From Candidatus Moraniibacteriota bacterium (GTDB lineage: Bacteria; Patescibacteriota; Minisyncoccia; Moranbacterales; GWC2-37-73), in assembly GCA_013336225.1 (NCBI GenBank), contig JAAXUC010000002.1, positions 74,634-138,633 on the forward strand: 64,000 nt of DNA. Reading direction: 5' to 3'. The position numbers and the translations under genes are program-made. This document shows, piece by piece, positions 2,424-23,298 of the stretch. Numbering within the stretch: position 1 is the first letter of the stretch; each line of letters begins with the position of its first letter. Under the pieces are notes generated by a model. That model worked only from the letters and a program-made list of their open reading frames with translations. It ran no database searches and was not told the DNA's origin.

Positions 2424-3485
2424 ATGTTAAGAGAAATAAAAATAAAATTAAAAAAACTTGCCAGTTTTTTATCCACATCAACCTTTGTTTTTTTATTGGT
2501 GATGCCAGCCAGCACGAATTATCAATTGAAGGATTTTGGTTTTGGCAGTGGAGGAACTAGCACGGCTTCATCCGGAAATTATTCTTTGGATGCAATTGCT
2601 GGTGAAATCAGCAGTGGGAAATTGTCTTCAGCAACTTTTGGAATTGGCAGTGGTTTGACCTATACAAATCAAGCCAATGTGCCGGTGGCGCCAACATTCA
2701 CCAATCCAAACAATTATTACAATAAATTGCAGCTCATCATTGATACTTCAGGAAATCCAGCTGATACTAAATTTGCCATCGCAATCAGCACGGACAACTT
2801 TGCAACCATTACAAACTATGTGCAAAGCGACAACACGGTTGGCACGGTTTTGGGAATTGAAGATTATCAAGCATATGCCAGCTGGGGAGGTGCAAGTGGA
2901 TTCTATGTTATTGGTCTGGCTGCCAATACAACATATCAAGTGAAAGTCAAAGCCATGCAAGGAAAATTCACTGAGACTGGATTTGGTTTGGTTTCAACTG
3001 CAGCCACCGTGAATCCGACAATGAGTTTTGGAATCAACATCAACACGATAAATTTCGGAAATCTTCCAGCGGGAACAGTTGTGAATAGCCCTCAAAGTGT
3101 TACAGCTAGTTTTGCAACCAACGGAGAAACGGGAGGAAAAGTGTATATCATCGGAAAAAATGCTGGACTCTTGAGCGCCTCAAAGAGTTATACAATTGCT
3201 TCAGCGACAGCTGATTTGTCTTCAGCTGCAGTGCAGGGCTTTGGCGCGCAGGGAACAAGTGCCACGCAAAGTTCTGGCGGCCCACTTTCAATTGTGGCGC
3301 CATACAACGTTGCTGCCAGCAATGTTGGAATTGTTGACACTGCTGTGCGGGAAATTTTTTCTTCTGCCAATCCAATTGTTGGTGGCAGCGGAATCTTTTT
3401 GCTCAAAGCAAAATCATTGGCACTGACTCCAGCCGCCAGTGATTATAGTGAGATTTTAACGGTGATTGCCTCAGGAAGCTTCTAA
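2424..3485 (+). CDS. Secreted Thr/Ser/Gly-rich surface protein, paralog 1
   Basis: 353 aa with an N-terminal signal peptide and a low-complexity T/S/G/A-rich body. The C-terminus DYSEILTVIASGSF is conserved with the next gene (DYTDTLTVIAAGRF). Confidence 0.6.
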   Translation: MLREIKIKLKKLASFLSTSTFVFLLVMPASTNYQLKDFGFGSGGTSTASSGNYSLDAIAGEISSGKLSSATFGIGSGLTYTNQANVPVAPTFTNPNNYYNKLQLIIDTSGNPADTKFAIAISTDNFATITNYVQSDNTVGTVLGIEDYQAYASWGGASGFYVIGLAANTTYQVKVKAMQGKFTETGFGLVSTAATVNPTMSFGININTINFGNLPAGTVVNSPQSVTASFATNGETGGKVYIIGKNAGLLSASKSYTIASATADLSSAAVQGFGAQGTSATQSSGGPLSIVAPYNVAASNVGIVDTAVREIFSSANPIVGGSGIFLLKAKSLALTPAASDYSEILTVIASGSF

Positions 3486-3701: not shown

Positions 3702-4778
3702 ATGCAACATAAAGTTGTAAAAAAAAGCTCAGTCCCGAATGTTTTGATGCTAGTTGTCATTGGTATTGCCACACTTGCTGTTTCTGGCAAAGCTCAAGCT
3801 GGTGGTCTCGGCAATGTTTCTGTGCGATTGGATCGAATGATGGCCGGTCAGGCAACTGGGGGCACAATTTGTGCTCGTCCAATTACTACAGATACTGAAA
3901 CATTAGTGAAAATAACATTCCCAACAGGTTTTACAGTGAATCCTACCGCTGCTAACTGGACGACAAGTGTTACAAATCTGCCGGCTAATCCAGCTGGCTA
4001 CACTGTGGCTGCTTGGCCTGGTATAGGTGCAGCTGCTCAAACGGCATCTGGACAGGATGTGACTTTTGTTAGTACTGATTTGACACCAGGAACCACAATC
4101 TATTGTTTTAATTTTTCAGGGACGACAACATTGACAACTGGCACCGCTTCAAATGCTTATGTTGGATCGGTGACAACGCAAAAAGCTGGCCCAACAACGA
4201 TTGATTCATCTTCTTATAATCTTTCAACAATTACTGACGACACAATTACTATTACGGCTGTGGTGCCACCAAATTTTAGTTTTTCAATCGCTGGTGGCAA
4301 TACCGATAGCTTTACAGGAAATCTTTCTACCAGTGTTGTTTCTACTACTGGAAAGACAGCTACAATTACCACTAATGCTGCCAATGGCTGGGTTGCTTGG
4401 GTAAAAAGCGCCAATGCTGGACTCACTTCGGCCAGTGCTTCAGCTAGTATCGCCACCGCAGGAACAGTCAATAACTCTACTGCTGATTCTGACTTAGCAA
4501 GTACTACGGGTTATGTTTTGGACGTATCCTTTACAGATAGCGCAACTGCTACAACCGGAACAGTGAGTCAAGCTGCTGGATATGGAGCTGAATATGCAGG
4601 AAACGGGACGAGTTCAGGAGGAACACTTTCAACAACATTTCAACCCATTGCTGCTGCAAGCGGTGTTACTGATGGAGATACGATAACTTTAAAAGAAAGA
4701 GCAAAAATTAGCGCTATTCAAAAAGCTGCTAATGACTATACTGATACGCTGACTGTGATTGCTGCTGGAAGATTTTAA
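3702..4778 (+). CDS. Secreted Thr/Ser/Ala-rich surface protein, paralog 2
   Basis: 358 aa. Signal peptide MQHKVVKKSSVPNVLMLVVIGIATLAVSGKAQA. It has the same composition and C-terminal motif as the 2424-3485 product. Confidence 0.6.
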   Translation: MQHKVVKKSSVPNVLMLVVIGIATLAVSGKAQAGGLGNVSVRLDRMMAGQATGGTICARPITTDTETLVKITFPTGFTVNPTAANWTTSVTNLPANPAGYTVAAWPGIGAAAQTASGQDVTFVSTDLTPGTTIYCFNFSGTTTLTTGTASNAYVGSVTTQKAGPTTIDSSSYNLSTITDDTITITAVVPPNFSFSIAGGNTDSFTGNLSTSVVSTTGKTATITTNAANGWVAWVKSANAGLTSASASASIATAGTVNNSTADSDLASTTGYVLDVSFTDSATATTGTVSQAAGYGAEYAGNGTSSGGTLSTTFQPIAAASGVTDGDTITLKERAKISAIQKAANDYTDTLTVIAAGRF

Positions 4779-4806
4779 ATAAACACATCAACAGCTCGTT
4801 CGTGTA

Positions 4807-4834
4807 AAAACCTCCCAATTCGGAGGTTTTTTAT
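4807..4834 (+). terminator. Rho-independent terminator
   Basis: AAAACCTCC-CAATTC-GGAGGTTTTTTATTT. Confidence 0.6.
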
Positions 4835-4861
4835 TTGTTAAAGAGCCATTTATAGTGTATA

Positions 4862-5848
4862 TTCAATATGAGATATAATAAAAAACTAACAAATCCCCGT
4901 ATGTCATTTAAGAAAACAATTGCCTTGATAGCCATCACAGTGTTGCTTAGTTTTGGAGAAACAACATCTGCTCAAACCACTGCAACCGACCTGCGCTTAA
5001 CAAGTTCACCACTCCCAATTAATCTGAAGGTTATTCCAGGCACCACCGTTTCAGCTAATATTAAAGTTAAGAATGATGGCATCAGTGCGGAAAACATCAG
5101 AATAACTTTGATGAAGTTTAAAGCTGATTCTGCTACGGGTGCTCCAAATCTTAGCGAAAGGCAAGCGGGAGATGACTACTTTGATTGGGTGACTTTTTCT
5201 GAAGATAAATTTGTGCTGCCAGTTAATGAATGGAAAACAATCACGGCAACCTTTAATGTTCCAGCCTCAGCCTCATTTGGATATTATTATGCAGTAGTTT
5301 TTACTCGCGCGCAGGAAAATGTTACTCAAAGTGAAAAGCAAACGATACTTGTCGGTGGTATGGCGACCTTGGTTTTGCTGGAAGCTCAAGTTCCAAATGC
5401 AAAAAGAGAAATCCAAGTGACAGATTTTTCAGTGGACAAATCAATGTTTGAATTTTTGCCTGCCACTTTTTCAATCAAACTAAAAAACACTGGCAATGTG
5501 CATCTCGCTCCACGCGGAAATATTTTTATCAGTAAAAGCGATCAAAAGGATGTTGCAATTTTGGAAGTCAATCCAAACAAAGGGTCAATCTTGCCTGATT
5601 CGCCAAGAACGTTTGAGGAAAGTTGGTCGGATGGTTTTCCATATTACATCGACAAGCAAGCAGACGGAAAAGTTGTTATTGATGGTAATGGTAAAACAGA
5701 ACAAGAATTGAAATGGAACTTTGCAGAGGCCTCAAAACTCAGATGGGGAAAGTATACCGCCAAGATGCTGCTTGTGTATGATGATGGCAAACGGGATGTT
5801 CCCGTTGAAGCAGAAGTGAGTTTTTGGATTATGCCATGGAGAGTGATT
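4862..5848 (+). repeat. Tandem direct repeat, unit 1 (987 bp)
   Basis: Apparently 100% identical to 5969-6955 (offset 1107 bp). Translated products and internal small ORFs are identical. Confidence 0.85.
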
Positions 5849-5956
5849 ATTTATGCAGTCTTGATTCCTTTGATTCCTGCCTTGTCCGTATACTTTTTCA
5901 TGAAATGGAGAATGAAAAAAGCTATGAATAGAGGGAAAAAGAATAAAAAGAAATAG
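4868..5956 (+). CDS. Secreted protein with C-terminal TM anchor and basic tail (NTGNVH-PRG family), tandem copy 1
   Basis: 362 aa with a signal peptide and a beta-rich body. The first 326 residues are identical to the next gene. C-terminal anchor IYAVLIPLIPALSVYFF followed by KKAMNRGKKNKKK. Confidence 0.7.
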   Translation: MRYNKKLTNPRMSFKKTIALIAITVLLSFGETTSAQTTATDLRLTSSPLPINLKVIPGTTVSANIKVKNDGISAENIRITLMKFKADSATGAPNLSERQAGDDYFDWVTFSEDKFVLPVNEWKTITATFNVPASASFGYYYAVVFTRAQENVTQSEKQTILVGGMATLVLLEAQVPNAKREIQVTDFSVDKSMFEFLPATFSIKLKNTGNVHLAPRGNIFISKSDQKDVAILEVNPNKGSILPDSPRTFEESWSDGFPYYIDKQADGKVVIDGNGKTEQELKWNFAEASKLRWGKYTAKMLLVYDDGKRDVPVEAEVSFWIMPWRVIIYAVLIPLIPALSVYFFMKWRMKKAMNRGKKNKKK

Positions 5957-5962
5957 ATGTGA

Positions 5963-7096
5963 ATGGTGTTCAATATGAGATATAATAAAAAACTAACAAA
6001 TCCCCGTATGTCATTTAAGAAAACAATTGCCTTGATAGCCATCACAGTGTTGCTTAGTTTTGGAGAAACAACATCTGCTCAAACCACTGCAACCGACCTG
6101 CGCTTAACAAGTTCACCACTCCCAATTAATCTGAAGGTTATTCCAGGCACCACCGTTTCAGCTAATATTAAAGTTAAGAATGATGGCATCAGTGCGGAAA
6201 ACATCAGAATAACTTTGATGAAGTTTAAAGCTGATTCTGCTACGGGTGCTCCAAATCTTAGCGAAAGGCAAGCGGGAGATGACTACTTTGATTGGGTGAC
6301 TTTTTCTGAAGATAAATTTGTGCTGCCAGTTAATGAATGGAAAACAATCACGGCAACCTTTAATGTTCCAGCCTCAGCCTCATTTGGATATTATTATGCA
6401 GTAGTTTTTACTCGCGCGCAGGAAAATGTTACTCAAAGTGAAAAGCAAACGATACTTGTCGGTGGTATGGCGACCTTGGTTTTGCTGGAAGCTCAAGTTC
6501 CAAATGCAAAAAGAGAAATCCAAGTGACAGATTTTTCAGTGGACAAATCAATGTTTGAATTTTTGCCTGCCACTTTTTCAATCAAACTAAAAAACACTGG
6601 CAATGTGCATCTCGCTCCACGCGGAAATATTTTTATCAGTAAAAGCGATCAAAAGGATGTTGCAATTTTGGAAGTCAATCCAAACAAAGGGTCAATCTTG
6701 CCTGATTCGCCAAGAACGTTTGAGGAAAGTTGGTCGGATGGTTTTCCATATTACATCGACAAGCAAGCAGACGGAAAAGTTGTTATTGATGGTAATGGTA
6801 AAACAGAACAAGAATTGAAATGGAACTTTGCAGAGGCCTCAAAACTCAGATGGGGAAAGTATACCGCCAAGATGCTGCTTGTGTATGATGATGGCAAACG
6901 GGATGTTCCCGTTGAAGCAGAAGTGAGTTTTTGGATTATGCCATGGAGAGTGATTGGTGCAGGAATCTTTGTTGCAATTTTTGTTTTCATTGGTCTTAAA
7001 TCAACTTCACAAAATTTCTGGAGAAGAATTAGGACAATGTTTGGCAAAGAAAAAGAAATCATTGGCAAGAAAAAACCTATCAATAAGAAGAAATAA
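5963..7096 (+). CDS. Secreted protein with C-terminal TM anchor and basic tail (NTGNVH-PRG family), tandem copy 2
   Basis: 377 aa. The likely true start is the ATG at 5975, which is homologous to the copy-1 start. Identical to copy 1 through ...SFWIMPWRVI, then a different anchor GAGIFVAIFVFIGL followed by a K-rich tail. Confidence 0.7.
   Translation: MVFNMRYNKKLTNPRMSFKKTIALIAITVLLSFGETTSAQTTATDLRLTSSPLPINLKVIPGTTVSANIKVKNDGISAENIRITLMKFKADSATGAPNLSERQAGDDYFDWVTFSEDKFVLPVNEWKTITATFNVPASASFGYYYAVVFTRAQENVTQSEKQTILVGGMATLVLLEAQVPNAKREIQVTDFSVDKSMFEFLPATFSIKLKNTGNVHLAPRGNIFISKSDQKDVAILEVNPNKGSILPDSPRTFEESWSDGFPYYIDKQADGKVVIDGNGKTEQELKWNFAEASKLRWGKYTAKMLLVYDDGKRDVPVEAEVSFWIMPWRVIGAGIFVAIFVFIGLKSTSQNFWRRIRTMFGKEKEIIGKKKPINKKK
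5969..6955 (+). repeat. Tandem direct repeat, unit 2 (987 bp)
   Basis: See unit 1. Divergence begins right after codon I of PWRVI in both copies. Confidence 0.85.
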
Positions 7097-7100
7097 AAGA

Positions 7101-7238
7101 GTATTAATACCCCAGGGCAAGCCCTGGACCCGATGGGTTTTCGAGGCAAGCCTCGAGGCATTAAACCTTTTGGTATCGTCACTCACTCGGAAATGATTGT
7201 CTGCTGACAAATCATTTCGCTCGTTTCGCTAGATAATA
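7101..7238 (-). repeat. Family A structured repeat, copy 2 (inverted relative to copy 1)
   Basis: The reverse complement aligns end-to-end with 420-558. Differences fall in hairpin stems and are compensatory (TCGAGG/CCTCGA versus TTGAGG/CCTCGA). Confidence 0.75.
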
Positions 7239-7307
7239 GAACATACGTATCTGCAGACAACAAAAAATACCTAAATTGTTTTAGGTATTTTTTGTTTTCT
7301 GCTATAA

Positions 7308-8237
7308 TTGTTGTATATGAAAAAGAAATTAACATATTTAACTTTAATATTGGTTGGCGCATTATTTTTTTCAAAAAATGCCTTGGCTGATGATCAAAAT
7401 TTTTCCATCAGTCCTTTTTTTCAAGAAATTAATTTGGAAAAAGAGCAAGAGAGAACGGATTTTGTATTGGAAATTGCCAATAACACCGGAGCTGCTGCAA
7501 CCTTGAAATTGTCGGTGCTTGATTTTGGAGCGCTGGACGAATCTGGTGGGGTGGCTTTTTTGGGCAGCGCTGAAGATTTGAAAAACAAATATGCTCTAGC
7601 TTCTTGGGTCAGCTTGGAAAAAGATTCAGTTGTAATTAATCCTGGTGAAAAACAAAATGTCCGAGTGATGATTGAAAACAAAGATTCTCTTTCGCCGGGT
7701 GGACATTATGCTGCTGTGATGGCCAATATGGCAAAGGAAGATGATGGAACTGGCAGTGAGTCATCAATTGTTGCGCTTGATCCATCATTTGCCTCACTCA
7801 TCTTCGTGCGCAAAGTTGGCGGTGAAATCTATGGTTTGAATTTGAAAGATCAAGAAATTGAAAAGAATTTTTTGAGCTTGCCAAGCAATGTGAGATTGCG
7901 TTTTCAAAATACTGGTAATGTCCATGTCAGTCCGCGCGGAATCATCAAGCTCACCGATCCGTTGGGACGAGAAATTGCCACTGGAATCATCAATGGTGAA
8001 TCGGCCATAGTTTTGCCAGAAACATTTCGCAAATTCCCAACTGAGTTCAAGCAAGCAGCCGTGGCTTTCATGCCAGGGAAGTATGAGCTTTCGGTGGCAT
8101 ATCGCTTTGACGGAAAAGAAGATTTTGTGACTCAGCAGCAAGTTGTCTATTTTTTCCCAATTAAGATAATGCTCGCAAGTATTTTCATGCTTGTATTGGT
8201 AGCCTTTAGCTGGAGAAGGTTTAGGAGAAGAAGGTAA
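7308..8237 (+). CDS. Secreted protein with C-terminal TM anchor and RRRR tail (NTGNVH-PRG family), third paralog
   Basis: 309 aa with a signal peptide. The motif FQNTGNVHVSPRGII matches LKNTGNVHLAPRGNIF in the tandem duplicates. C-terminal TM helix followed by WRRFRRRR. An alternative start lies at 7317. Confidence 0.65.
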   Translation: MLYMKKKLTYLTLILVGALFFSKNALADDQNFSISPFFQEINLEKEQERTDFVLEIANNTGAAATLKLSVLDFGALDESGGVAFLGSAEDLKNKYALASWVSLEKDSVVINPGEKQNVRVMIENKDSLSPGGHYAAVMANMAKEDDGTGSESSIVALDPSFASLIFVRKVGGEIYGLNLKDQEIEKNFLSLPSNVRLRFQNTGNVHVSPRGIIKLTDPLGREIATGIINGESAIVLPETFRKFPTEFKQAAVAFMPGKYELSVAYRFDGKEDFVTQQQVVYFFPIKIMLASIFMLVLVAFSWRRFRRRR

Positions 8238-8406: not shown

Positions 8407-9009
8407 ATGGCAGAACAAAAATCAACATTTAAAAAAGTTAGGAAATATTTTTTTTGGATAATCTTAATCTCTACCTTAGTGGTGGGATTTTTCTTTTGGC
8501 GACAACTTCAAAAGCCAGCTTCAGGTCGAATCAAAATGGTCACTCAAGCTCCAGCCTCAGTTATTCCTGTTGATGGTGCATTAGAACGTTTCGAGGGAGA
8601 ATATTTTTCTTTTGCACATGATGCAAAATATTTGCTCAAAAATCATCGAAAAGATTTTGAAAACAATGGCGTTATTCTTGAGAGTGCTTTTTTCGCCCAA
8701 GCAGATGTCAATTCAAAAAAGATTGCCGTCACAGTGGAAGATATTAGGGGGAGAGGCATGGCGGATACGGGAAACTTTTTGCTGCGCGAAAAAAATCCAA
8801 AAGTGTATGCGCAGGAAAAATTTGACATCAATGGTGCCGAGGGAATTTCTTTTTCGACCACAAATGAATCGGGTTTTTTGGAAAAAGTTTTCTTCATTCC
8901 AAAAGGTGAATATGTGGCAGAATTTGCCTTCACTCAGCCAATAACAGAGGATGGAAGCTCTGAATTGGAAATGACGGAAATTTTGAAAAGCATTCAATGG
9001 AAAAAGTGA
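8407..9009 (+). CDS. Membrane-anchored hypothetical protein
   Basis: 200 aa with one N-terminal TM helix and no recognisable domain. Confidence 0.5.
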   Translation: MAEQKSTFKKVRKYFFWIILISTLVVGFFFWRQLQKPASGRIKMVTQAPASVIPVDGALERFEGEYFSFAHDAKYLLKNHRKDFENNGVILESAFFAQADVNSKKIAVTVEDIRGRGMADTGNFLLREKNPKVYAQEKFDINGAEGISFSTTNESGFLEKVFFIPKGEYVAEFAFTQPITEDGSSELEMTEILKSIQWKK

Positions 9010-9264: not shown

Positions 9265-12231
9265 ATGTTTGCAAAAACAAAAACAAAATTTGAAATTCTC
9301 ACAATAACACTTATTCTAGTAAGTGGAGTTTTTGTTTTCTCTGCAAGTGATGCGAAGGCCGCCGCTGGAATTTTCAAACAAATCAATTTTCAAGGAAAGG
9401 TGGTCAATAAAACTGCTGGCACCAATGTGGCCAACGGAAACTATGATTTCACTTTCGTTTTATATGATGCAGCTAGTGGAGGCGCAACACTTTGGACAGA
9501 AACCAGAACTGGCGCAAATCAAGTTGCAGTGACCGATGGAATTTTTCAAGTGAACCTTGGATCAGTCACAGCTTTGCCAGCAACTGCCACTTTAAATGTC
9601 GACAACCTATATTTGGGAATCAATTTTGCTGGTGATGGTGAAATGACAACTCGCATGAGGTTTACGGCTGCACCATATGCTTTCAATGCTGACAATGCAA
9701 ACGCTCTTGCAGGTGGAACTTGGGCAGCGCCAGGAGCAATCGGCGGAACAACTGCTGCTGCTGGAACTTTCACAAATCTTTCAACCACCACTGGTGGTCT
9801 TTCGATTGCTGCTGGTCAGTCATACACTGGCGCAGGCGCAGTGACACTTTCTTCCACCACCAATGGACTTACTTTAAATTCTGGCAACAACACACTGACC
9901 GTTGATTCAACTGACACAGCGCTGACAGCTTCGGGCGTGACAACTTTGACTTTGGGAGCCAACACCACAATCACCAACGCTTCAGGCAACATCAGCTTGC
10001 AAGCAGCGGGAGTTGGCACTGCGAACATTCAAATCGGTGACGGCGGCACAACTTCAGCCACTCCCGATCTTTTCATTCTGGACATTGGTTCAGCAGAGCC
10101 AACTGGAACAATCGGTGCCATGTATTATTCGACTGCATTAGCCAAATTTCGTTGCTACCAAGGAGTGGCTTGGGCTGATTGTATTGGAGTCGGTGGCAGC
10201 GGATATGCAACCATTCAAGATGAAGGAGCTGCTCGCACTCAAAGAGCAATCTTGAACTTCATTGGGGCAGGAGTTTCCTGTGTAGATAACGCCGGCAATC
10301 TTTCAACTGATTGCACCATTACGGGAGGTGGATCATCTGATTTGCAGACAACATATAACAGCGATGCTGACGGAACAAACGCAAACATCATCATGACTGC
10401 CACTGATGGAAGCGTGGTGATGCAGAACACGACTGGCACTCAATTTCAAGTGACCATGGCCAGTGCCACTGCGGCAACTGTTGATTTGGCAAGCATTTTG
10501 AATTCTGGAGCCAGCCAGGGAGCAGCCACCACCGGAGTTGATGGACTCCAAATTGATTTTGCAAATGCTGGAGCTGCTGCGATTGACAATGCTGGTCTTC
10601 GCATCAACACCACTTCGACAAACAACAATGCTGGATCATTCTTGTCAGGACTATATATTGCAGGCATCACTCCGCAAGCCAATTCATATGAAACAGCGAT
10701 CAGAATTGGAGCTGGCTGGGATGATATTTTGAGAGTGGATGCAACCACTGCAAATTTCGATTTGAATAATGCTGCCAACAGCACCTTGAACATTGTCAAT
10801 GACGGAGCTGGCGTTGCATCTCTTTCAGTTGAAGCTGGCGGAAGTTACACTGGTGCCGGTGCAGTGACACTTTCTTCTGCTGCAGGCGCAGGTCTGACAA
10901 TCAATTCAGGCACAGTTGGTGCAATCAGCATTGGAGATGACGCTTCAAACGAAACAATCAATTTCGGAACAGGCGCAGCCATCAAAACACTCAACATTGG
11001 ATCACTCAATTCATCTTCAGTGACAACAATTCAATCAGGAACAGCTGGCATCACTTTACAAGTTGCAGGCGCAGGCACAACTGGCACAGTGCAAATTGGC
11101 GCTGGCACAGGCGCCAATGAAACTCCAGACCTCTTGTCTCTTGATTCAAAATTGAGCGCTGGAGATCCTGCCGGAACTGTTGGCGACATGTATTATAATG
11201 TTGGCGCTGCAAAATTCAGATGTTTTGAAGGTGCTGCTTGGAAAGATTGTGACACAGGTGGAGCAGGTGGATCACCTGCAGGTTCAGACACTCAAGTGCA
11301 ATACAACAACGCAGGCACATTCGGCGCAGATGCAGGCTTTAGCTTTAATAGTGCAACTCAAACCTTGGGATTAAATGGAACAGATGCAGAAATTAACATG
11401 AAAAGTATTACCAATGAGCCATCTGCTCCTGCTTCTGGAACATTAACTTGGTACTCAAAAGTGGTTGCTGGGCGCGTTATGCCAAAATGGAAAGCACCTT
11501 CAGGAGTTGATACTTCTTTTCAATCAAGCTTTGGATTTAATCGTATTGCCATGGTAACTCCATCTGGAACAGGAACCACTGTTCCTCAGGTTTGGGGAAC
11601 AACAATAACATCCGTTGGAAATCTTAGTCATCCCGCACTTGCTGCTACTAGTTTTTTGACTGCCACTCGTCGTTTTACGCTTACAACTAGTGCCACCGCC
11701 GCAGGGACATTAGTGTCGAGTAGAGCACCCGCAACAATGGCTTGGCGTGGAAATGTTGCTGGACTTGGCGGATTCTTTTTTACTCAACGTTTTTCTCTTG
11801 CTACTTTGGTGGCAGGCAACCGTGCTTTTGTTGGCCTGAGTGATTCCACTGCCGCACCTACTAACGTTGATCCAACGACAAGCACAACACCTGGAAAAAT
11901 TGGTTTGGCAATAAACACTAATACTGGAAATTGGAACTGGGTTAATAATATAACCGGAACAGCTCCTACCGTAACAGCTCTTGGCGCAAATTTTCCAATT
12001 AATATTACTGATATGTATGAATTGGTTATCTTTTCAGCGCCAAATGGGTCAAATATTACGTATCGAGTTACAAATCTGTCTACTGGTGCACAAACCAATA
12101 ACACTACAGTATCAGCAAATATACCTGCAGCTGCAACCTTTATGGTCCCGGTTTTTTGGATGACAAATAATGCTACAGTTGGAACTGTTGCCATGTCATC
12201 TGCTGGCTGGTACTTGGAAAGTGATCAATAA
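9265..12231 (+). CDS. Giant secreted repeat protein (Gly/Thr/Ala-rich), hypothetical surface protein or adhesin
   Basis: 988 aa with a signal peptide. It carries two copies of a module ending TPDL(F/L)xLD...G(A/D)MYY...AKFRC(Y/F)(Q/E)G(V/A)AW(A/K)DC. The last ~330 residues are non-repetitive. Confidence 0.65.
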   Translation: MFAKTKTKFEILTITLILVSGVFVFSASDAKAAAGIFKQINFQGKVVNKTAGTNVANGNYDFTFVLYDAASGGATLWTETRTGANQVAVTDGIFQVNLGSVTALPATATLNVDNLYLGINFAGDGEMTTRMRFTAAPYAFNADNANALAGGTWAAPGAIGGTTAAAGTFTNLSTTTGGLSIAAGQSYTGAGAVTLSSTTNGLTLNSGNNTLTVDSTDTALTASGVTTLTLGANTTITNASGNISLQAAGVGTANIQIGDGGTTSATPDLFILDIGSAEPTGTIGAMYYSTALAKFRCYQGVAWADCIGVGGSGYATIQDEGAARTQRAILNFIGAGVSCVDNAGNLSTDCTITGGGSSDLQTTYNSDADGTNANIIMTATDGSVVMQNTTGTQFQVTMASATAATVDLASILNSGASQGAATTGVDGLQIDFANAGAAAIDNAGLRINTTSTNNNAGSFLSGLYIAGITPQANSYETAIRIGAGWDDILRVDATTANFDLNNAANSTLNIVNDGAGVASLSVEAGGSYTGAGAVTLSSAAGAGLTINSGTVGAISIGDDASNETINFGTGAAIKTLNIGSLNSSSVTTIQSGTAGITLQVAGAGTTGTVQIGAGTGANETPDLLSLDSKLSAGDPAGTVGDMYYNVGAAKFRCFEGAAWKDCDTGGAGGSPAGSDTQVQYNNAGTFGADAGFSFNSATQTLGLNGTDAEINMKSITNEPSAPASGTLTWYSKVVAGRVMPKWKAPSGVDTSFQSSFGFNRIAMVTPSGTGTTVPQVWGTTITSVGNLSHPALAATSFLTATRRFTLTTSATAAGTLVSSRAPATMAWRGNVAGLGGFFFTQRFSLATLVAGNRAFVGLSDSTAAPTNVDPTTSTTPGKIGLAINTNTGNWNWVNNITGTAPTVTALGANFPINITDMYELVIFSAPNGSNITYRVTNLSTGAQTNNTTVSANIPAAATFMVPVFWMTNNATVGTVAMSSAGWYLESDQ

Positions 12232-13107: not shown

Positions 13108-13575
13108 ATGAAAAATACAAAATCTGGTTTTACATTGGTTGAGCTTTTATTGGTAATCGGTATCATTGCCACTTTGGCGGTGGTTGTTTTTGTGGCGCTT
13201 GATCCAGCAAAAAGATTTGCTGATGCCCGCGACGCAAGAAGAACATCGGATGTGGAAACAATCTTAAGCGCAGTTCATCAATATGTTATTGACAGCAAAG
13301 GCTCTTTTCCTGCTGGTATTGATAATGCTGAAAGACAAATTGCAACAGCAACTGACACTTGTGGAGTTTCTGGGGGTGGATGTGGTGATGGAGGAGAAAC
13401 TGGTTGTGTTGACTTGAGCGGTCAGTTAGCAAAATATCTTAAAGAAATTCCATATGATCCAACTGCCGGAATCGGGCCAGATCATTCTCACTATACAATC
13501 GTGAAGGATGATAACGGAATTGTCACTGTGCGTGCTTGTGATGCGGAAGGTGGAGTGATTTCTGTTTCGCGGTAG
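13108..13575 (+). CDS. pilA: Type IV pilin (prepilin with class III signal peptide), candidate major pilin
   Basis: MKNTKSG then FTLVELLLVIGIIATLAVVVFVAL: a canonical G/F cleavage site, Glu at +5 and a hydrophobic N-terminal helix. 155 aa with a Cys-rich C-terminal region. It has its own promoter and terminator. Confidence 0.8.
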   Translation: MKNTKSGFTLVELLLVIGIIATLAVVVFVALDPAKRFADARDARRTSDVETILSAVHQYVIDSKGSFPAGIDNAERQIATATDTCGVSGGGCGDGGETGCVDLSGQLAKYLKEIPYDPTAGIGPDHSHYTIVKDDNGIVTVRACDAEGGVISVSR

Positions 13576-15053: not shown

Positions 15054-16607
15054 ATGAAAATTCGTACTAAAGTTTTCCTGATCGTGGTGGCCATTTTCGG
15101 ACTGCTTTTTTTTGGCATCTCGCAGATTTTCACAGCAGTTGAATCAGCCAACTTTGAAAGATTGGAAAAGCAAAATGCATTTAAGGATATGAACAGGGTT
15201 GAGAAGGCTATTGCAAATGAAAATTCCAAGTTGGCGGAAATGATTGCTAGTTGGTCACATTGGAATGATGCTTATGCTTTTATTCAAGACGGAAATCAGA
15301 CATTTATCGACACCAATCTTAGCGCTGAGATCATAACTCAGCTGCAACTCAACTTCATCGCGATTAAGAATGATGTTGGAGAAAGCTTATTTGAAAAATA
15401 TGTGAATAAAGAAGGAAATGAGATGCCATTTCCGCAGGCGATCAAGGATGTGCTAAATGACACCAGAATTTCTGATGCAGCTAAACGCCCAATCCAATTG
15501 AATTTTTCAGGCATAGTTGAAACTGCTGACGGTCCATATGTGATAGCTATTCAATCGGTGACTTCTAGTGATGGTGGCGCCTCACCCAAGGGCTTGATGG
15601 CTTTTGGTTACAAAGCGGATGAGGATTTCATGGCGGCTTTGTCTGAGGCAACTTTGTTGCAATTGGACAGTGCCCCTTTGACTGAAATTGAAAAAATTGG
15701 AGCGCTGCTTGCTTTGCAGAAAAATCTCTCCATCACTGAGCGCATTTCAATTCAAAAAACAGCAGAATATGATTCAATTAATGTGTTTATGCTAACAGAC
15801 GATATTTTTGGCGAACCCGGAAGAATTTTCAAGGCTCAGATAAAGCGAGATGTCTATCTGGCTGGTCTTGATAACATTGCCAGAATAAATTTATTCTTGG
15901 TGGGAGTCGCATTCCTTATTGTGATTATTGTGTTGAGCTTGTTTGAGTTTTTTGTGCTCAGAAAAATCGATAAACTCATGAGTGGTGTTCAGCGAGTCGG
16001 CTCTTTGGACTATGTGGATGAGCAGCTGCTTGTTTCTGGCAAAGATGAGTTTGCCAAATTGGGCTTGGAGATTAATAAGATGCTGGACGCCGTGGAAAAA
16101 ACTCGTTTGGAAAAAAAGGAGACAGAAAAACGTTTTTTAAATATTGCTGATAGTGCTCCGGTGATGATTTGGATTTCAGATGAAAAAAACAAGATCGTAT
16201 ATGTGAATACCACTTTGACTGATTTTTTGGGTAAATCAGAGAAGGAGCTGTTTGGAGATGCTTGGATCAGTGTCATTCACCCTGAGGATAAGGAAAAAGT
16301 CTTGCTTGAATATGCTGATGCGGCAGCAAAAAAACAGAAAATTTCACTCAAATATCGAGTTATGAATGCAAAGAGTGAATATCGCTGGATTTTGGTGGAG
16401 GCAATAACCAGAATCACCCCGAGAGGACTTTTCAAGGGTTATACTGGCACAGCCATTGATGTCACTCAATTTGAAGAGTCAGATCAAAGGAAAATAAAAT
16501 ATATTGAAGAAATTGAAAAAATGAATAGGCTCATGGTTTCAAGGGAACTTAAGATGGTTGAGCTCAAGAAACAATTGCGAGATTGTGAAGTGCAGGAAAA
16601 GATGTAA
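15054..16607 (+). CDS. Membrane sensor protein with extracytoplasmic domain and cytoplasmic PAS domain, no kinase domain
   Basis: 517 aa. The layout is TM, a ~250-aa periplasmic region, TM, then a PAS-like region (MIWISDEKNKIVYVNTTLTDFLGKSEKELFGDAWISVIHPEDKEKV...YRWILVEA) and a C-terminal coiled coil. No HisKA or HATPase motifs. Confidence 0.6.
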   Translation: MKIRTKVFLIVVAIFGLLFFGISQIFTAVESANFERLEKQNAFKDMNRVEKAIANENSKLAEMIASWSHWNDAYAFIQDGNQTFIDTNLSAEIITQLQLNFIAIKNDVGESLFEKYVNKEGNEMPFPQAIKDVLNDTRISDAAKRPIQLNFSGIVETADGPYVIAIQSVTSSDGGASPKGLMAFGYKADEDFMAALSEATLLQLDSAPLTEIEKIGALLALQKNLSITERISIQKTAEYDSINVFMLTDDIFGEPGRIFKAQIKRDVYLAGLDNIARINLFLVGVAFLIVIIVLSLFEFFVLRKIDKLMSGVQRVGSLDYVDEQLLVSGKDEFAKLGLEINKMLDAVEKTRLEKKETEKRFLNIADSAPVMIWISDEKNKIVYVNTTLTDFLGKSEKELFGDAWISVIHPEDKEKVLLEYADAAAKKQKISLKYRVMNAKSEYRWILVEAITRITPRGLFKGYTGTAIDVTQFEESDQRKIKYIEEIEKMNRLMVSRELKMVELKKQLRDCEVQEKM

Positions 16608-16629
16608 ATTGATGTTGTTTGGATAATTT

Positions 16630-19431
16630 TTGCTTGTGATGGTAATAAAATCTCTCAAAAATAAAATAACAATTTTCGTGCTGTCAGCCATTTTATTTTT
16701 TGGCTTTTTGGCTGTGGCTTGGGTGGCTGCTTATGGCAATGAATCTTTGGTCGCTCAAAAAAAGAGTGAAACCGTTCTTGCCTTGGTGAGCATGGCTGAT
16801 CATGTTGAGGAATGGATGGATTTGGAACGTTATTCAGTTGAACTTACTGCGCACAACATTGTCCTGGTTGATGCCTTGGAGCAAGGAGAAAATTTGCTGG
16901 AAAATAATAAGTTGAGAATTTTTCTGGAGGAGCAGAAAAGAAAGGTTTCAGCGAAAGACATTGTGGTTCTCGATATAAATGGGAATGTATTGACAGCTAC
17001 CGGTGGGATATATTTCGGTCATAATTTCGGTTATCGGAATTATTTCAAGGATGCGCTGGCAAACGATGTTGCCTCTGAAGTTGTGATTGGTGCAATCAGT
17101 AATGATTCAAACTTTGTTTTCTCTCATCGCGTGGTGAATCGCGAGGGGAAAGCTTTAGGTGTGGCACTGCTCATCACTAAAACTGAAACCGCTATCAAGT
17201 CATTGTTTGGTGAAATGCAAGATGCTGACCAGCACAAACATATGTTGGTGGATGACAATGGAATAGTAGTGGCTTCAAATGACAACGAGATGGCTTTGAA
17301 AAGCATTGGGCAATTGCCATATCAAACTTTGCAAGATATCAATGCGGATAAGCGCTACGGCGACAGAGAAATCCAGTCTTTGCGATATAATAATGTGCTT
17401 GATGCGATTAAGGAAAAAGCGGGAGTCAGTGTATATGATTTTTTTGATAATAATAATGGAAAACAGGAGTTGGTTGGAGTGGCGCCAGTCCATAAATATC
17501 CCTATTCCGTGGTGATGGAGATTCAAGAAGTCGATCTTATTTGGCAGATTGCCAGGGTTTATTATACGCTTGGATTGGCCGTTCTGATTTCTTGTCTTTT
17601 GGCGGCAGTGGTCATCTATTACATGCTTAACAAGTTTCTGTCGCCACTGAAAGAATTGCGCAGAGTGGCTGAAAAAATAAGTAAAAATGAACTTGATTGC
17701 GAACTTTTCTTGAAAACGGGTGATGAGCTTGAGGAACTTAGCACAGCTTTCAATGTGATGATCAAGGGCCTGATGAGGACTAAAGATGACATTGAGAAGA
17801 GAGTTGAATTGCAAACTAGTGACATCAGAAATAAGCAGCTTGCCTTGGAAAATCAGGAAAAAGCTGCCATGAATATTCTGGAAGATATCACGGGAGAGAA
17901 AGAGAAGTCTGAAAAAATGGCCATTGATCTGGAGAAATTCAAACTTGCCATTGAAAACACTAATGATCAGGTTGTAATCACGGACAAGGATGGGGTTATT
18001 GTTTATTCAAACCCTGCCATGACAAAAATTACGGGATATTCAATGGAAGAAGCTATTGGAAAAACGCCTGCGCTTTGGGGAGGACAAATGAGTGATCAAT
18101 ATTATGGGGCTTTTTGGAAAACTATTAAAGAAAAGAATGAGGAATATGAAGGTGAATTGTATAATAAACGTAAAAATGGTTCCACTTTCTTGGCACATAT
18201 TCATGTTGCTCCGATTCTTGGCGATGGCGAGGAGGTTAAGTTCTTCGTGGGAGTCGTGCGTGACATTTCCAAAGAACGTGAATCGCAGCTGCAACTCAAG
18301 AAGGATGCCGAAGACTTGAAATCGGCAAATAGTTTGATTGCAAGCCAAAAGGAACGAGCTGAAAATATTTTGGCTTATTTGCAGTCAATTGGTGATGGCG
18401 TGATTGCAACTGATCTTGAGGGCAAAATCATCTTTTTCAATGAGGCAGCTGAGAAATTGACTGGTGCCACAAATGAAGAGGCTGTTGGAAAAAAATCAAA
18501 CGAAATTGTTTTTATTGCCGAAGAAAAGAATTCAAAAGTGTTGCAAGATTTGATTGGCGACGCACTTGCTGGCGGACATGTTCGAAAAAAAGTAGGCGAA
18601 CATTACTTGATAAAATCCAAGGAAGACTTGATTATGGCAATATCTTTCAGGCTTTCATTTATTTTTGATAAAAACAATAAGAAGCAAGGTTGCATTCTCG
18701 TGATGCGCGACGTGAGTGAACAAAGAGAAATCGAAAAAACTAAAGATGATTTCCTCTCTGTTGCAGCTCATCAATTAAGAACGCCGCTCACAGGTGTGAG
18801 GTGGTCCTTGGAGATGCTTTTGGATGGAGATTTGGGCGAATTGCCAGAGGCCGCGAAAGAGGCTTTGGATCAAATTTCCAAAAACAATAAGCGCTTGATC
18901 TTGTTGGTGAATGATTTGTTGGATGTTTCCAGAATCAATATGGGCAAATCAAAGGAGGAGCCTATTCCAGTGGATGTTTCTAGTGCATTGCAAGAATCTA
19001 TCAATACCTTGCACAGCTTGGCTGAAGAAAGGGGAATTAATATTGTGTTTGAACAAAAGGCAAAAGAAATTCCGATGATCAATATTGGTCCAAAACATCT
19101 TTTTCAATCTTTTGAAAATCTTCTGTCTAATGCTATAAAATATAGCCCAAATGGTGGAGCCGTTAAAGTTTTATTGGATTTTAAAAAGAATAAAGTTGTT
19201 ATCAATGTTTCTGATAATGGCATTGGAATTCCGAAAGAAGATCAAGAAAAAATCTTTGGCAAGTTTTTTAGAGCTTCAAATGCAGCGCTCAAAGAAACAG
19301 AGGGTTCCGGATTGGGATTGAATGTGGTAAAATCATTTATAGAAGATTTCGGTGGGAATGTTTCTTTTGTGAGCAAGGAAGGCAAAGGAACAACGTTCAC
19401 AATCGAATTACCAACTGATTTTAAGTCGTAA
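16630..19431 (+). CDS. Sensor histidine kinase (Cache-like sensor, HAMP, PAS x2, HisKA, HATPase_c)
   Basis: 933 aa. The H-box is SVAAHQLRTPLTGVRW. N, G1 and G2 boxes are present (LSNAIKYSP, DNGIGIP, GSGLGLNVV). HAMP-like and PAS regions lie between two TM segments and the kinase core. Confidence 0.8.
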   Translation: MLVMVIKSLKNKITIFVLSAILFFGFLAVAWVAAYGNESLVAQKKSETVLALVSMADHVEEWMDLERYSVELTAHNIVLVDALEQGENLLENNKLRIFLEEQKRKVSAKDIVVLDINGNVLTATGGIYFGHNFGYRNYFKDALANDVASEVVIGAISNDSNFVFSHRVVNREGKALGVALLITKTETAIKSLFGEMQDADQHKHMLVDDNGIVVASNDNEMALKSIGQLPYQTLQDINADKRYGDREIQSLRYNNVLDAIKEKAGVSVYDFFDNNNGKQELVGVAPVHKYPYSVVMEIQEVDLIWQIARVYYTLGLAVLISCLLAAVVIYYMLNKFLSPLKELRRVAEKISKNELDCELFLKTGDELEELSTAFNVMIKGLMRTKDDIEKRVELQTSDIRNKQLALENQEKAAMNILEDITGEKEKSEKMAIDLEKFKLAIENTNDQVVITDKDGVIVYSNPAMTKITGYSMEEAIGKTPALWGGQMSDQYYGAFWKTIKEKNEEYEGELYNKRKNGSTFLAHIHVAPILGDGEEVKFFVGVVRDISKERESQLQLKKDAEDLKSANSLIASQKERAENILAYLQSIGDGVIATDLEGKIIFFNEAAEKLTGATNEEAVGKKSNEIVFIAEEKNSKVLQDLIGDALAGGHVRKKVGEHYLIKSKEDLIMAISFRLSFIFDKNNKKQGCILVMRDVSEQREIEKTKDDFLSVAAHQLRTPLTGVRWSLEMLLDGDLGELPEAAKEALDQISKNNKRLILLVNDLLDVSRINMGKSKEEPIPVDVSSALQESINTLHSLAEERGINIVFEQKAKEIPMINIGPKHLFQSFENLLSNAIKYSPNGGAVKVLLDFKKNKVVINVSDNGIGIPKEDQEKIFGKFFRASNAALKETEGSGLGLNVVKSFIEDFGGNVSFVSKEGKGTTFTIELPTDFKS

Positions 19432-19448
19432 TAACTGTTGATACTATT

Positions 19449-19838
19449 ATGGAGAACAAATGCGAAGGACGAAAAGTGCTGGTAGCTGAAGACGATGTTT
19501 TTCTGTCTAATGTCTATAAGAGTAAATTGACCAAGGAGGGGTTTGAGGTTTTTATCGCCAAAAACGGGGAAGAAGCTGTTGAAATGGCCACAAAAAATAA
19601 ACCAGAGATCATTTTGCTGGATCTTATCATGCCGATTAAGAATGGTTTTGAAACATTGAAAGAATTGAAAGAATCAGCTGAAACTAAAGATATTAAGGTG
19701 GTTATCCTTTCAAATTTGAGTCAGGAAGAGGATGAGAAGAAGTTGTTGGCCATGGGTGCTATCGGTTATGTAGTAAAGGCCAATGTTTCTTTTCGCGAAA
19801 TCATTGAATTGGTCAAGCAGCATCTTGGTATTGAATAA
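19449..19838 (+). CDS. Response regulator, receiver domain only (CheY-like)
   Basis: 129 aa: KVLVAEDD...ILLDLIMP...K. No output domain. Confidence 0.8.
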   Translation: MENKCEGRKVLVAEDDVFLSNVYKSKLTKEGFEVFIAKNGEEAVEMATKNKPEIILLDLIMPIKNGFETLKELKESAETKDIKVVILSNLSQEEDEKKLLAMGAIGYVVKANVSFREIIELVKQHLGIE

Positions 19839-19852
19839 TTTAGGGTAAAAAT

Positions 19853-21556
19853 ATGAAATATTTGGCTTTCACAAATCAAGATATTGAAAAAATTCTTGGT
19901 GAGTCTGGCGTGGTTGATGAGGCAAAGGTTGCCAAAGCAGTGGCTAGTGCCAAGCTGGAAAATAGCTCACTTGCAGATGTCGCTGTCAATCAGGGGCTTG
20001 TTACTAATGAAGAATTGTCCAGATTGGTGGCGGATGCACTGGATATGCCATTTATGTCACTTGCTGGAAAACTTCCAACCAAAGAGACTTTGGCACTTAT
20101 TCCTGAATTAGTGGCCCGCAAGAAGCGCGTGGTGCCTTTTAGGTTGGATGAAAAGGGATTACATGTTGCAATGGCGGATCCCACTGATCTTGAAACACTC
20201 AATTTCATTGCTCGCAGGGAGGGCATGCATGCCATTGCCTATGCCACCACTGATCAAGATATTGATACTGTCCTGGAGCTGTATGGCGAAGGGTTGAACA
20301 ATTTGTTGGAAATAAAATCTGAAAAGTCTGGAAAAGTTGCTGGCAGCGAGGATGATTCTTCCATTATTCAGATTGTGAAAAAAGTTATTGTGGAGGCGTA
20401 TCGCAATCGCGCCTCTGATATTCATATTGAACCGCGCGAAGAAAGCGACAGTGTGATCAGATTTCGTATTGATGGAATTTTGCATGACGTCACCTTGATT
20501 CCAATGGAATTGCATGCCCAAATCATTTCGCGCATCAAAGTGATGGCAAAGTTGCGAACTGATGAACATCAAACTCCACAGGATGGAAAAATTTCTTTCA
20601 AGCTGGAGGATGACAATTCTGAAATGGATTTGCGTGTTTCAATCGTGCCGGTGACAGAAGGAGAAAAAGCAGTGCTGCGTCTTTTGGCTGAACGTTCTCG
20701 TCAATTTTCATTGGCTGGCATTGGCCTTAGTGAAAATAATCTGAAAAAAATTCAAGAGGCTTATGAAAAACCATATGGCATGGTTTTGTCGACTGGACCG
20801 ACTGGTTGTGGAAAAACCACAACATTGTATGCCATTTTGAAACTTTTGAATAAACGGCACGTGAACATCATGACCATTGAAGATCCGGTGGAATATGACA
20901 TTGATGGAGTGAGCCAAATTCAAGTCAATCCCAAAGCAAAGCTTACTTTTGCCTCAGGTTTGCGCAGCATTTTGCGTCAAGATCCGAACATCATTTTGGT
21001 GGGAGAAATTCGTGATCAAGAAACGGCTGGCATTGCAATCAATTTGGCGCTTACGGGACATCTGGTTTTATCAACCTTGCATACTAATGACAGCGCCACG
21101 GCCATTCCACGTTTCATTGATTTGGAAGTGGAACCATTTCTGATTGCTTCGACTGTCAGTGTCATCATCGCGCAACGTTTGGTGCGTAAAATCCATGATG
21201 GCTGCAAAGTGAGCGAGGAATTTAAAGCGGCTGACATCGCCAAGAAAATTGGTTGGGAGCTTACTGAAAAAATGTTTGGTGTCAAAAAATCCAATCCGGA
21301 TGGTACTGTGCGACTGTATCAAGGCAAAGGTTGTGAAGCTTGTCAGGGAACAGGTTTTCAGGGCAGAATCGGAATTTTTGAAGTGATGGTCATGGATGAT
21401 CAAATGCGACAAGCAATTTCTCAAAACAAAGATGCGGGCTTTTTGGAGGAGTTGGCGAAAAAGTCAGGCATGATTGGTCTCTTGGAAGATGGCTTGGGAA
21501 AAGTTAACATGGGAATTACAACTATTGATGAGATTTTGGGTGCCACGAAATTATAG
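19853..21556 (+). CDS. pilB: Type IV pilus assembly ATPase PilB/GspE family (locus 1)
   Basis: 567 aa with an N-terminal GspII_E-like domain. Walker A is GPTGCGKTT. The ATPase core begins ASDIHIEP and a tetracysteine motif follows (C...C...CEACQGTGFQGR). Confidence 0.85.
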   Translation: MKYLAFTNQDIEKILGESGVVDEAKVAKAVASAKLENSSLADVAVNQGLVTNEELSRLVADALDMPFMSLAGKLPTKETLALIPELVARKKRVVPFRLDEKGLHVAMADPTDLETLNFIARREGMHAIAYATTDQDIDTVLELYGEGLNNLLEIKSEKSGKVAGSEDDSSIIQIVKKVIVEAYRNRASDIHIEPREESDSVIRFRIDGILHDVTLIPMELHAQIISRIKVMAKLRTDEHQTPQDGKISFKLEDDNSEMDLRVSIVPVTEGEKAVLRLLAERSRQFSLAGIGLSENNLKKIQEAYEKPYGMVLSTGPTGCGKTTTLYAILKLLNKRHVNIMTIEDPVEYDIDGVSQIQVNPKAKLTFASGLRSILRQDPNIILVGEIRDQETAGIAINLALTGHLVLSTLHTNDSATAIPRFIDLEVEPFLIASTVSVIIAQRLVRKIHDGCKVSEEFKAADIAKKIGWELTEKMFGVKKSNPDGTVRLYQGKGCEACQGTGFQGRIGIFEVMVMDDQMRQAISQNKDAGFLEELAKKSGMIGLLEDGLGKVNMGITTIDEILGATKL

Positions 21557-21593
21557 ATATATATAAAAAACAAGAGCTATGCTAGATTAGGTG

Positions 21594-21725
21594 CTTTTGA
21601 TTTCTTATTTCCTTTTTTAGGAACATTTTTGACTGAAATTCATAGTCAAAAAACTTACTCGCTCTCGCTGCGTAGGTCCTAAAAAGAAAATAAGCAAATC
21701 AAAAGGTGAGTTAATTTTTGAAATC
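21594..21725 (+). repeat. Family B structured repeat, copy 1 (intergenic pilB-pilC)
   Basis: Outer arms TTTGATTTCTTATTTCCTTTTTTAGGAAC and GTAGGTCCTAAAAAGAAAATAAGCAAATCAAAA are complementary. The inner hairpin is TTTTTGACTGAAATTCATAGTCAAAAA. The core is CTCGCTCTCGCTGC. Homologous to 24344-24474 and 30273-30416. Confidence 0.7.
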
Positions 21726-21730
21726 ATATA

Positions 21731-22816: not shown

Positions 22817-22834
22817 GATGTTGAAAAAAGTTAA

Positions 22835-23290: not shown

Positions 23291-23298
23291 TTATCAGC

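Follow-up and report, generated by a model that had tools for sequence, protein, structure and literature searches.

Gene conversion is known to keep the coding regions of duplicated genes such as tufA and tufB, or the human HBA1 and HBA2, near-identical, with identity dropping where the homology ends. In those cases the same protein is produced from both copies; here, we describe a tandem pair, genes A and B, in which the homogenised part is instead fused to different conserved modules. The pair lies in a window of 64,000 nucleotides (positions 74,634 to 138,633 of contig JAAXUC010000002.1) from a metagenome-assembled genome (MAG) of Candidatus Moranbacteria, a lineage of the Patescibacteria or Candidate Phyla Radiation (CPR), and its two products join one ectodomain to two distinct transmembrane (TM) anchors. 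The closest evolutionary precedent is furnished by mtrA-1 and mtrA-2 of the Methanococcales and Methanomicrobiales, where an ancient in-operon duplication has been subject to long-lasting gene conversion of the non-membrane domain while the TM domains have remained distinct (Wang et al. 2015, PMC4632066). Although the evolutionary logic is the same, A and B differ from this precedent in protein family, in function (mtrA codes for a methyltransferase subunit) and in domain of life; moreover, the present loci have up to three adjacent copies, at least five anchor types and a nucleotide identity that is usually 99–100%. This case was not among the best matches in the literature on concerted evolution, gene conversion and the CPR.

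In terms of protein architecture, two described systems come closest. The WxLIP proteins of the Firmicutes WxL clusters combine a DUF916 and a DUF3324 domain with a TM helix, and are encoded beside the secreted proteins that WxLIP binds (Hassan et al. 2023, PMC10599100). The CPR-specific Pam pilus, the pilins of which were reported mainly in Saccharimonadia and Microgenomatia, works by donor-strand exchange: its PapD/FimC-like chaperones, PamC and PamD, bear a C-terminal TM helix, and PamR acts as an RbmA-like membrane-anchored terminator; the preprint makes no mention of duplicated or identical chaperone genes (bioRxiv 10.64898/2026.03.03.709456).

An earlier note on this DNA, made from the sequence alone, had claimed that 4862–5848 and 5969–6955 are identical base for base. 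Exact self-comparison bears this out: at an offset of 1107 the two match without a single mismatch over 987 bp, beyond which the match cannot be extended, and a repeat search of the window seeded the same pair. A perfect match of this length cannot arise by chance. At the same offset, identity falls to 26% over the 100 nt on the left flank and to 33% over the 120 nt on the right, which is the level of unrelated sequence. Repeat copy 1 (4862..5848, forward strand) and repeat copy 2 (5969..6955, forward) each run from a 6-nt leader and start codon through the signal peptide and the two Ig-like domains as far as the residues ...FWIMPWRVI. The first begins 6 nt 5' of the ATG, directly after a terminator-like hairpin that follows the pilin genes (4806..4831, forward) and a promoter-like site, TTGTTA-17-TATATT (4835..4863, forward), which ends at the start of the repeat; both come from a consensus scan, and the promoter is a pattern match only.

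Gene A (4868..5956, forward; 362 aa) and gene B (5975..7096, forward; 373 aa) appear in GenBank, on the 139,649-bp contig of the MAG, as NTW26924.1 (351 aa, annotated from 4898) and NTW26925.1 (362 aa, annotated from 6005), the annotated start of both being the internal Met11. Counted from the common ATG, their products share the first 327 residues exactly, one more than the 326 given in the earlier note, and thereafter they diverge, with the sequences that the note had quoted, into two unrelated hydrophobic segments followed by basic tails (IYAVLIPLIPALSVYFFMKWRMKK... versus GAGIFVAIFVFIGLKSTSQNFWRRIR...). On the basis of the anchor scores given below, gene A ends in a type-A TM anchor with the basic tail IYAVLIPLIPALSVYFFMKWRMKKAMNRGKKNKKK and the stop codon (5849..5956, forward), and gene B in a type-B TM anchor with the amphipathic basic tail GAGIFVAIFVFIGLKSTSQNFWRRIRTMFGKEKEIIGKKKPINKKK and the stop codon (6956..7096, forward). 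A unique spacer of 12 nt (5957..5968, forward) leads from the stop codon of gene A to repeat copy 2; the A-to-repeat junction that it forms shows the arrangement to be tandem, and this tandem topology is secure even if the contig should be a short-read graph assembly. The start codon of gene B lies 18 nt after the stop codon of gene A and the consensus scan gave no promoter-like site before gene B; hence, the two genes are probably co-transcribed from one promoter.

It is very probable, in our assessment, that A and B are an ancient tandem pair under domain-limited concerted evolution by gene conversion or unequal exchange, rather than the product of a recent duplication. Zero divergence over 987 bp, and an identity that in the window reaches 6 nt upstream of the start codon in the manner of a whole-gene copy, are what would be expected of a very recent tandem duplication followed by replacement of the anchor in one copy; the earlier note had listed a recent duplication among its options and had read the clean switch of anchors as a swap of the anchoring module. 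The anchors themselves contradict both proposals. Among the best 120 of 1,062 homologs, the C-termini fall into a few conserved types: type A (..IPxxPALxVYxxMKWRMKK), type B (..FVxIGLKSTLQNxWxKI..), type C (..FFAGRLSxKI) and type D (..NxxLIxGLxLYVIRLRR). We scored the window anchors with two hidden Markov models (HMMs), one for type A from 17 anchors and one for type B from 39, all taken from other genomes to the exclusion of the window's own. Anchor A obtained 59 bits against the A-type model and −0.8 bits against the B-type model, and anchor B 55 bits against the B-type and −3.9 bits against the A-type model. By these scores the two anchors, which are only 27% identical to each other in amino-acid sequence, are ordinary members of types A and B; both types are old, occurring in many other Patescibacteria genomes with the gene order and the operon preserved.

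The same configuration recurs widely. A locus survey, in which one genome per species was scanned, returned 80 related loci with one to three copies of the ectodomain gene and at least five anchor types between them. Self-comparison of the multi-copy loci revealed direct repeats of 869–968 bp with 99.1–100% identity, covering the same gene region, in 20 genomes besides the window, one of them a complete chromosome. The event is real, as the earlier note had argued. Between genomes, in contrast, the ectodomains are 45–92% identical at the protein level (47–76% to the window in the other high-identity genomes), and the nearest inter-genome identity of the homogenised tracts is 71–81% at the nucleotide level. 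The order of the copies is likewise maintained: the first usually carries an A or a D anchor and the last usually a B anchor, also in genomes whose ectodomains share only about 47–72% identity with those of the window. One locus, L016, has three copies with the anchors A-D-B and ectodomains that are all 99.1–99.5% identical, and another, L047, has an A anchor followed by a fifth type. In L016 (10001–13073), the third copy is split by an assembly frameshift, which is either a sequencing indel or a pseudogene.

The contrast between the two parts of the gene is most evident from their nearest relatives in the multi-copy loci. Of the 59 genes concerned, 53 have an ectodomain that is most closely related to that of the tandem partner; the exceptions come from three Saccharimonas genomes, close relatives of one another, in which the copies retain about 55% identity. 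For the anchor, the nearest relative is the tandem partner in none of the 59, but always a gene in another genome, most often one with the same anchor type. A discordance of this kind marks the concerted evolution of an anciently duplicated gene. On sequence comparison, the 3' anchors evolve as separate orthologous lineages, while the 5' 0.9–1 kb are kept identical. The homologs thus show the duplication to be ancient and only the nucleotide identity to be anomalous, an outcome that the earlier note had itself named as telling against a recent event. To sustain a recent duplication, independent and equally recent events involving the same two conserved cross-genome anchors in the same conserved order would have to be postulated in at least 20 genomes that have diverged by 20–50%, which is implausible; further, simple tandem copying cannot give each copy a different, non-homologous 3' end (33% nucleotide and 27% amino-acid identity). 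We accordingly assign this explanation a negligible probability. Ongoing gene conversion, another of the options in the earlier note, is the explanation that fits best. Protein-level selection was also considered as the cause of the identity and rejected, as it cannot explain identity at synonymous sites.

Two further features characterise the concerted evolution. First, the identity of the pairs is bimodal: they are either at least 99.1% identical or 64–80% identical, with none in between, and the two members of a diverged pair still resemble one another more than they do any other genome, the Saccharimonas exceptions aside. This bimodality fits a self-reinforcing regime in which a pair is either locked or escaped. 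Second, the boundaries of the tract are asymmetric. Measured from the end of the conserved FWxxPWR motif, the 3' end of the tract falls at −1 to +22 nt in every high-identity pair in which the motif could be located; this is the junction of ectodomain and TM segment, beyond which come the non-homologous anchors. The 5' end is variable: in most pairs it is found 45–90 nt inside the signal peptide, whereas the window and two other loci (L003 and L018) have it at the start codon; the shorter 5' tracts may reflect erosion at the edge of the homogenised region. In one locus, L044, the two copies are mosaic, with 363 nt at 100% identity at their 5' ends (2801–3163 and 3865–4227) followed by about 60–70%; therefore, an exchange point lies inside the gene.

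Briefly, we advance the following mechanism for this pattern. The ectodomain DNA, about 0.9–1 kb in length, constitutes direct repeats that are homologous between the copies and lie about 0.1–0.25 kb apart. Because the copies are homologous and close to each other in direct orientation, RecA-type recombination, by gene conversion and/or unequal sister exchange, could repeatedly overwrite one copy by the other. The tract would be blocked from extending into the anchors by their non-homology, and the anchors are presumably kept distinct by selection; as the anchors lack mutual homology and are under such selection, the 3' boundary would be fixed, and the homogenised tract would stop at the ectodomain/TM junction. 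The result would be one ectodomain displayed on two different membrane anchors under one promoter. A diversity-generating retroelement or a shufflon-type switch was considered as well, and was rejected: neither fits copies that do not vary or anchors that each come with a complete gene, and no obvious recombinase or reverse-transcriptase gene occurs among the conserved neighbours in the synteny analysis.

The relative weight of the two recombinational routes bears on an alternative in which homogenisation proceeds mainly via cycles of unequal crossing-over, with the 1107-bp unit being deleted and re-amplified and selection restoring the A-B arrangement, rather than via non-reciprocal conversion. 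Such cycles would find ideal substrates in direct repeats that measure about 1 kb and have about 120 bp between them. Many of the related loci are single-copy and nearly always of the B type, including close relatives of two-copy genomes, and copy number varies between one, two and three among related genomes; for instance, a locus with D and B anchors (L031) and one with only B (L035) have 92% identical ectodomains. The retention of the last anchor, B, in nearly all single-copy genes is just what repeat-to-repeat deletion predicts. However, such a deletion loses the first anchor irreversibly and cannot alone regenerate the A-B pair; the internal exchange point of the L044 mosaic is allowed by both mechanisms, and loci with only B would be produced equally by assembly collapse. 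A predominance of crossing-over cycles is thus, to us, unlikely, and we retain domain-limited concerted evolution in its broader form, with conversion or unequal exchange as its means.

The remaining alternative is an artefact of assembly, also listed in the earlier note, whereby a single copy, or two clearly diverged copies, came to be represented as a perfect pair by a graph edge being written twice or by strain variants being linearised. The source is a MAG contig whose assembly method is unverified; a resolved graph repeat would be identical by construction; and the 100% pairs elsewhere are mostly on contigs with SPAdes-style NODE_ names. If the contig of the window came from a short-read graph assembly, its 100.0% identity would be an upper bound, because a resolved graph repeat may be written twice from one graph edge. 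Against this, the junction at which the tail of anchor A leads by way of the 12-nt spacer into the start of the repeat is unique sequence that must exist in the reads, and allelic variants would form a bubble and not a loop; the same junction led us to discard a strain-variant bubble. Further counter-evidence comes from other loci: the complete 1.19-Mb chromosome (L061) has 1 mismatch in 898 positions, a 717-kb contig (L040) has 1 in 905, and the three-copy locus L016 has 3–6 mismatches plus indels, so that these copies must have been assembled independently and are still about 99.1–99.9% identical. Likewise, five of the pairs on NODE_-named contigs differ by 1–4 mismatches, and diverged pairs, with 74–80% identity, show the tandem A-B architecture without posing a repeat problem.

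The ways in which assemblies fail at this locus point in the same direction. Three short contigs, L081 (1255 bp), L082 (1209 bp) and L084 (1238 bp), each with one A-anchor gene and identical ends of 127–139 nt, are de Bruijn loop contigs of the same tandem in other metagenomes; the MEGAHIT-style (k141) contigs L006 and L037 end inside the gene, and the Logan contig L083 ends in the signal peptide, at about the point where the repeat starts in most other loci. We therefore regard an artefact as improbable. Many other homolog matches were observed on contigs of 1.1–1.26 kb.

As regards the protein, an AF2 model of gene A built from a 22-sequence alignment (mean pLDDT 76.6, pTM 0.48) has a signal-peptide helix, beta-sandwich domains with strands at about 44–147 and 165–321, and a C-terminal helix at 324–361. 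The products of both genes have a hydrophobic N-terminus ending in ...TSA|Q and a basic tail after the helix; accordingly, the predicted architecture is a signal peptide, two Ig-like domains and a TM helix. In a Foldseek search of the PDB, the top matches of this model were the Enterococcus faecium WxLIP chain 9i25_C, in which it is bound to a long WxL protein, and 9i1y, with E-values of 8e-10 to 3e-9 over about 300 aligned columns; these were followed by the chaperone-usher chaperones CfaA, CsuC, YadV and DraB, and also by RbmA. All of these matches have a probability of 1.0 but low TM-scores, of 0.25–0.45 for the four chaperones. Sequence identity of A and B to the matched chains is only 10–11%, a profile search of the PDB sequences with the family alignment gave no match, and the single Pfam match of the two genes, to fn3_5, is sub-threshold. 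The family alignment (A1) contains a nearly invariant arginine (R43 in ORF A, at about position 8 of the mature protein) and an invariant lysine (K123) in the first domain, which are reminiscent of the Arg8/Lys112 clamp for the subunit carboxylate in PapD-like chaperones.

In nearly all of the 80 loci the gene order is: pilin-like protein 1, pilin-like protein 2, one to three copies of the ectodomain gene, a diverged paralog, a membrane protein of about 200 aa and a very large secreted protein; this synteny is kept across about 70 loci. With the WxLIPs, A and B share the signal peptide, the two IgG-like domains and the C-terminal TM helix, together with the best structural match, but unlike them they lack a Pfam WxLIP match, as does, above the cutoff, the diverged paralog; and no WxL domain was found by Pfam in the neighbouring upstream proteins, whose C-termini read ...LTVIA(S/A)G(S/R)F. 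As in the Pam system, a CPR operon encodes signal-peptide proteins comprising Ig-fold pilins, or in the window pilin-like proteins, and two-domain proteins with a C-terminal TM helix; in contrast to the genomes in which Pam pilins were mainly reported, the window genome belongs to the Moranbacteria, and no link in sequence was established. Attempts to connect A and B to Pam by curated NCBIfam models failed, the Saccharibacteria homologs also being without a match, and Pam pilin structures were absent among the PDB matches of the upstream pilin-like protein. We therefore suggest, with moderate confidence, that A and B act like the membrane-tethered chaperone or assembly factor of a Pam/WxL-like system, and do not file them as PamC or PamD.

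Within this framework, the ectodomain would be tethered to the membrane and act on the upstream pilin-like proteins as their chaperone or assembly factor. The strong, type-specific conservation of the anchors suggests specific membrane partners, and it would be the anchor that directs an otherwise identical ectodomain to one membrane partner or role rather than another. Going further, arrays of one ectodomain on several anchors might be built into the way in which Patescibacteria assemble pili or surface filaments without an usher: conversion would hold the subunit-binding heads to a single sequence, allowing heads and pilins to co-evolve as a unit, and the anchor types A–E would place the head in different membrane complexes or roles. 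These might be, for example, initiation as against elongation or termination, or a heteromeric TM pair that unites two chaperone–subunit complexes for donor-strand exchange. We offer this only as a speculative proposal that we think may well be wrong.

Several points weigh against the interpretation as a whole. The identity and copy number of the repeat in this genome are those of the assembly, and if it was a graph assembly the 100% may be partly by construction; a single-copy locus may reflect a gene that is truly single, a deletion or the collapse of an assembly, making the frequency of pairs uncertain; and gene conversion is read from a pattern. On the functional side, the assignment draws, with moderate confidence, on a model of medium quality, given the pLDDT and pTM values cited above, and on low TM-scores (0.3–0.45); no curated Pfam or NCBIfam model reaches its cutoff for these proteins, and NCBIfam scans of the window proteins, eight Saccharibacteria homologs and the operon neighbours at locus L074 yielded only the weak match to the N-terminal part of PamT; and the matches include RbmA, to whose fold the pilus terminator PamR has been assigned, such that A and B could possibly have an RbmA-like fold.

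The locus is instructive in several respects. What appears as a perfect recent duplication is an old pair under continuous homogenisation, which annotation and evolutionary pipelines would misread. At this locus, the assemblies of many CPR genomes from metagenomes are also broken or collapsed by the repeat; hence, MAG catalogues probably list too few copies and too small a repertoire of anchors. As a case of domain-limited concerted evolution in bacteria it is well replicated, with a distribution of identities that separates locked from escaped pairs, and it suggests that TM anchors can be individually selected modules while the extracellular part is held in common. Finally, it provides leads on the membrane-anchored chaperone-like proteins of a CPR surface-filament operon, of a kind only recently described, and on the assembly of host-contact filaments in organisms for which neither an outer membrane nor an usher is expected.

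Turning to the remaining genes of the operon, pilin-like secreted protein 1 (2424..3485, forward; 353 aa) is the first, and its upstream position is kept in nearly all of the 80 loci. Its AF2 model (mean pLDDT 79) has two Ig/Fn3-like beta-sandwiches, with residues 19–82 at low confidence; this segment overlaps a stretch at the N-terminus that is conserved in sequence (alignment A2), STNYQLKDFGFGxGG, which may be a donor or acceptor strand element. Foldseek returned generic Fn3/Ig matches only, among them a CfaB pilin fusion, and the N-terminus has a weak match to the NCBIfam model CPR_pilus_PamT, at 26 bits against a cutoff of 240. Its C-terminus, ...TVIASGSF, is invariant. Pilin-like secreted protein 2 (3702..4778, forward; 358 aa), a paralog in a syntenically conserved position, is about 34% identical to it over the C-terminal half, ends in ...TVIAAGRF and has no Pfam or NCBIfam match; the invariant C-terminus common to both may be written as ...Y-x-E-x-L-T-V-I-A-x-G-x-F.

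The third, diverged paralog (7317..8237, forward; 306 aa), found directly downstream of the tandem copies in nearly all loci, is about 22% identical to A and B; it has a signal peptide, two Ig-like domains and a TM helix, and a weak match to the Pfam family WxLIP_PGBD/DUF916 (PF06030) at 18.2 bits against a cutoff of 27.3. Between gene B and this paralog, the region 7097–7316 is strongly structured (minimum free energy, MFE, of −74.7 kcal/mol; z = −6.4 against shuffles) and contains two short G+C-rich hairpins with a common GCAA loop, CCAGGGCAAGCCCTGG and TCGAGGCAAGCCTCGA, as well as a near-perfect 23-bp hairpin at 7253–7302. It has no Rfam match; over the whole window, Rfam yielded one tRNA and nothing else. 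The paralog is followed by the two conserved proteins that complete the syntenic set: a membrane protein (8407..9009, forward; 200 aa) with no Pfam or NCBIfam family match, and a Gly/Ala/Thr-rich secreted protein (9265..12231, forward; 988 aa) with no Pfam family match. The gene for the latter, which lies on the 3' side of the operon in most loci, has a local GC content of 0.47 against about 0.40 for the window.

Across the survey, we observed in one Saccharibacteria MAG (L077, 15253–17361, minus strand) a second, inverted set of pilin-like and ectodomain genes, diverged to 34% identity and about 5 kb from the main operon. Many third-party annotation (TPA) MAG records with the CPR-type operon, L003 and L008–L011 among them, bear titles such as 'uncultured Bdellovibrionales', 'Gammaproteobacteria', 'Terrimonas', 'Fimivivens' or 'Limnocylindria'; the probable reason is a wrong taxonomic label or a contaminated bin. 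In the window itself, a type IV pilus cluster lies downstream of the operon, within 13108–13575 and 15054–24293, with several prepilin-type N-methylation proteins, a T2SSE/PilB-like ATPase (19853–21556) and a T2SSF/PilC protein (21731–22816); a CHASE4-PAS protein and a Cache-HAMP-PAS histidine kinase (15054–19431) come before it. With this cluster downstream of the operon, two different filament systems are therefore encoded side by side.

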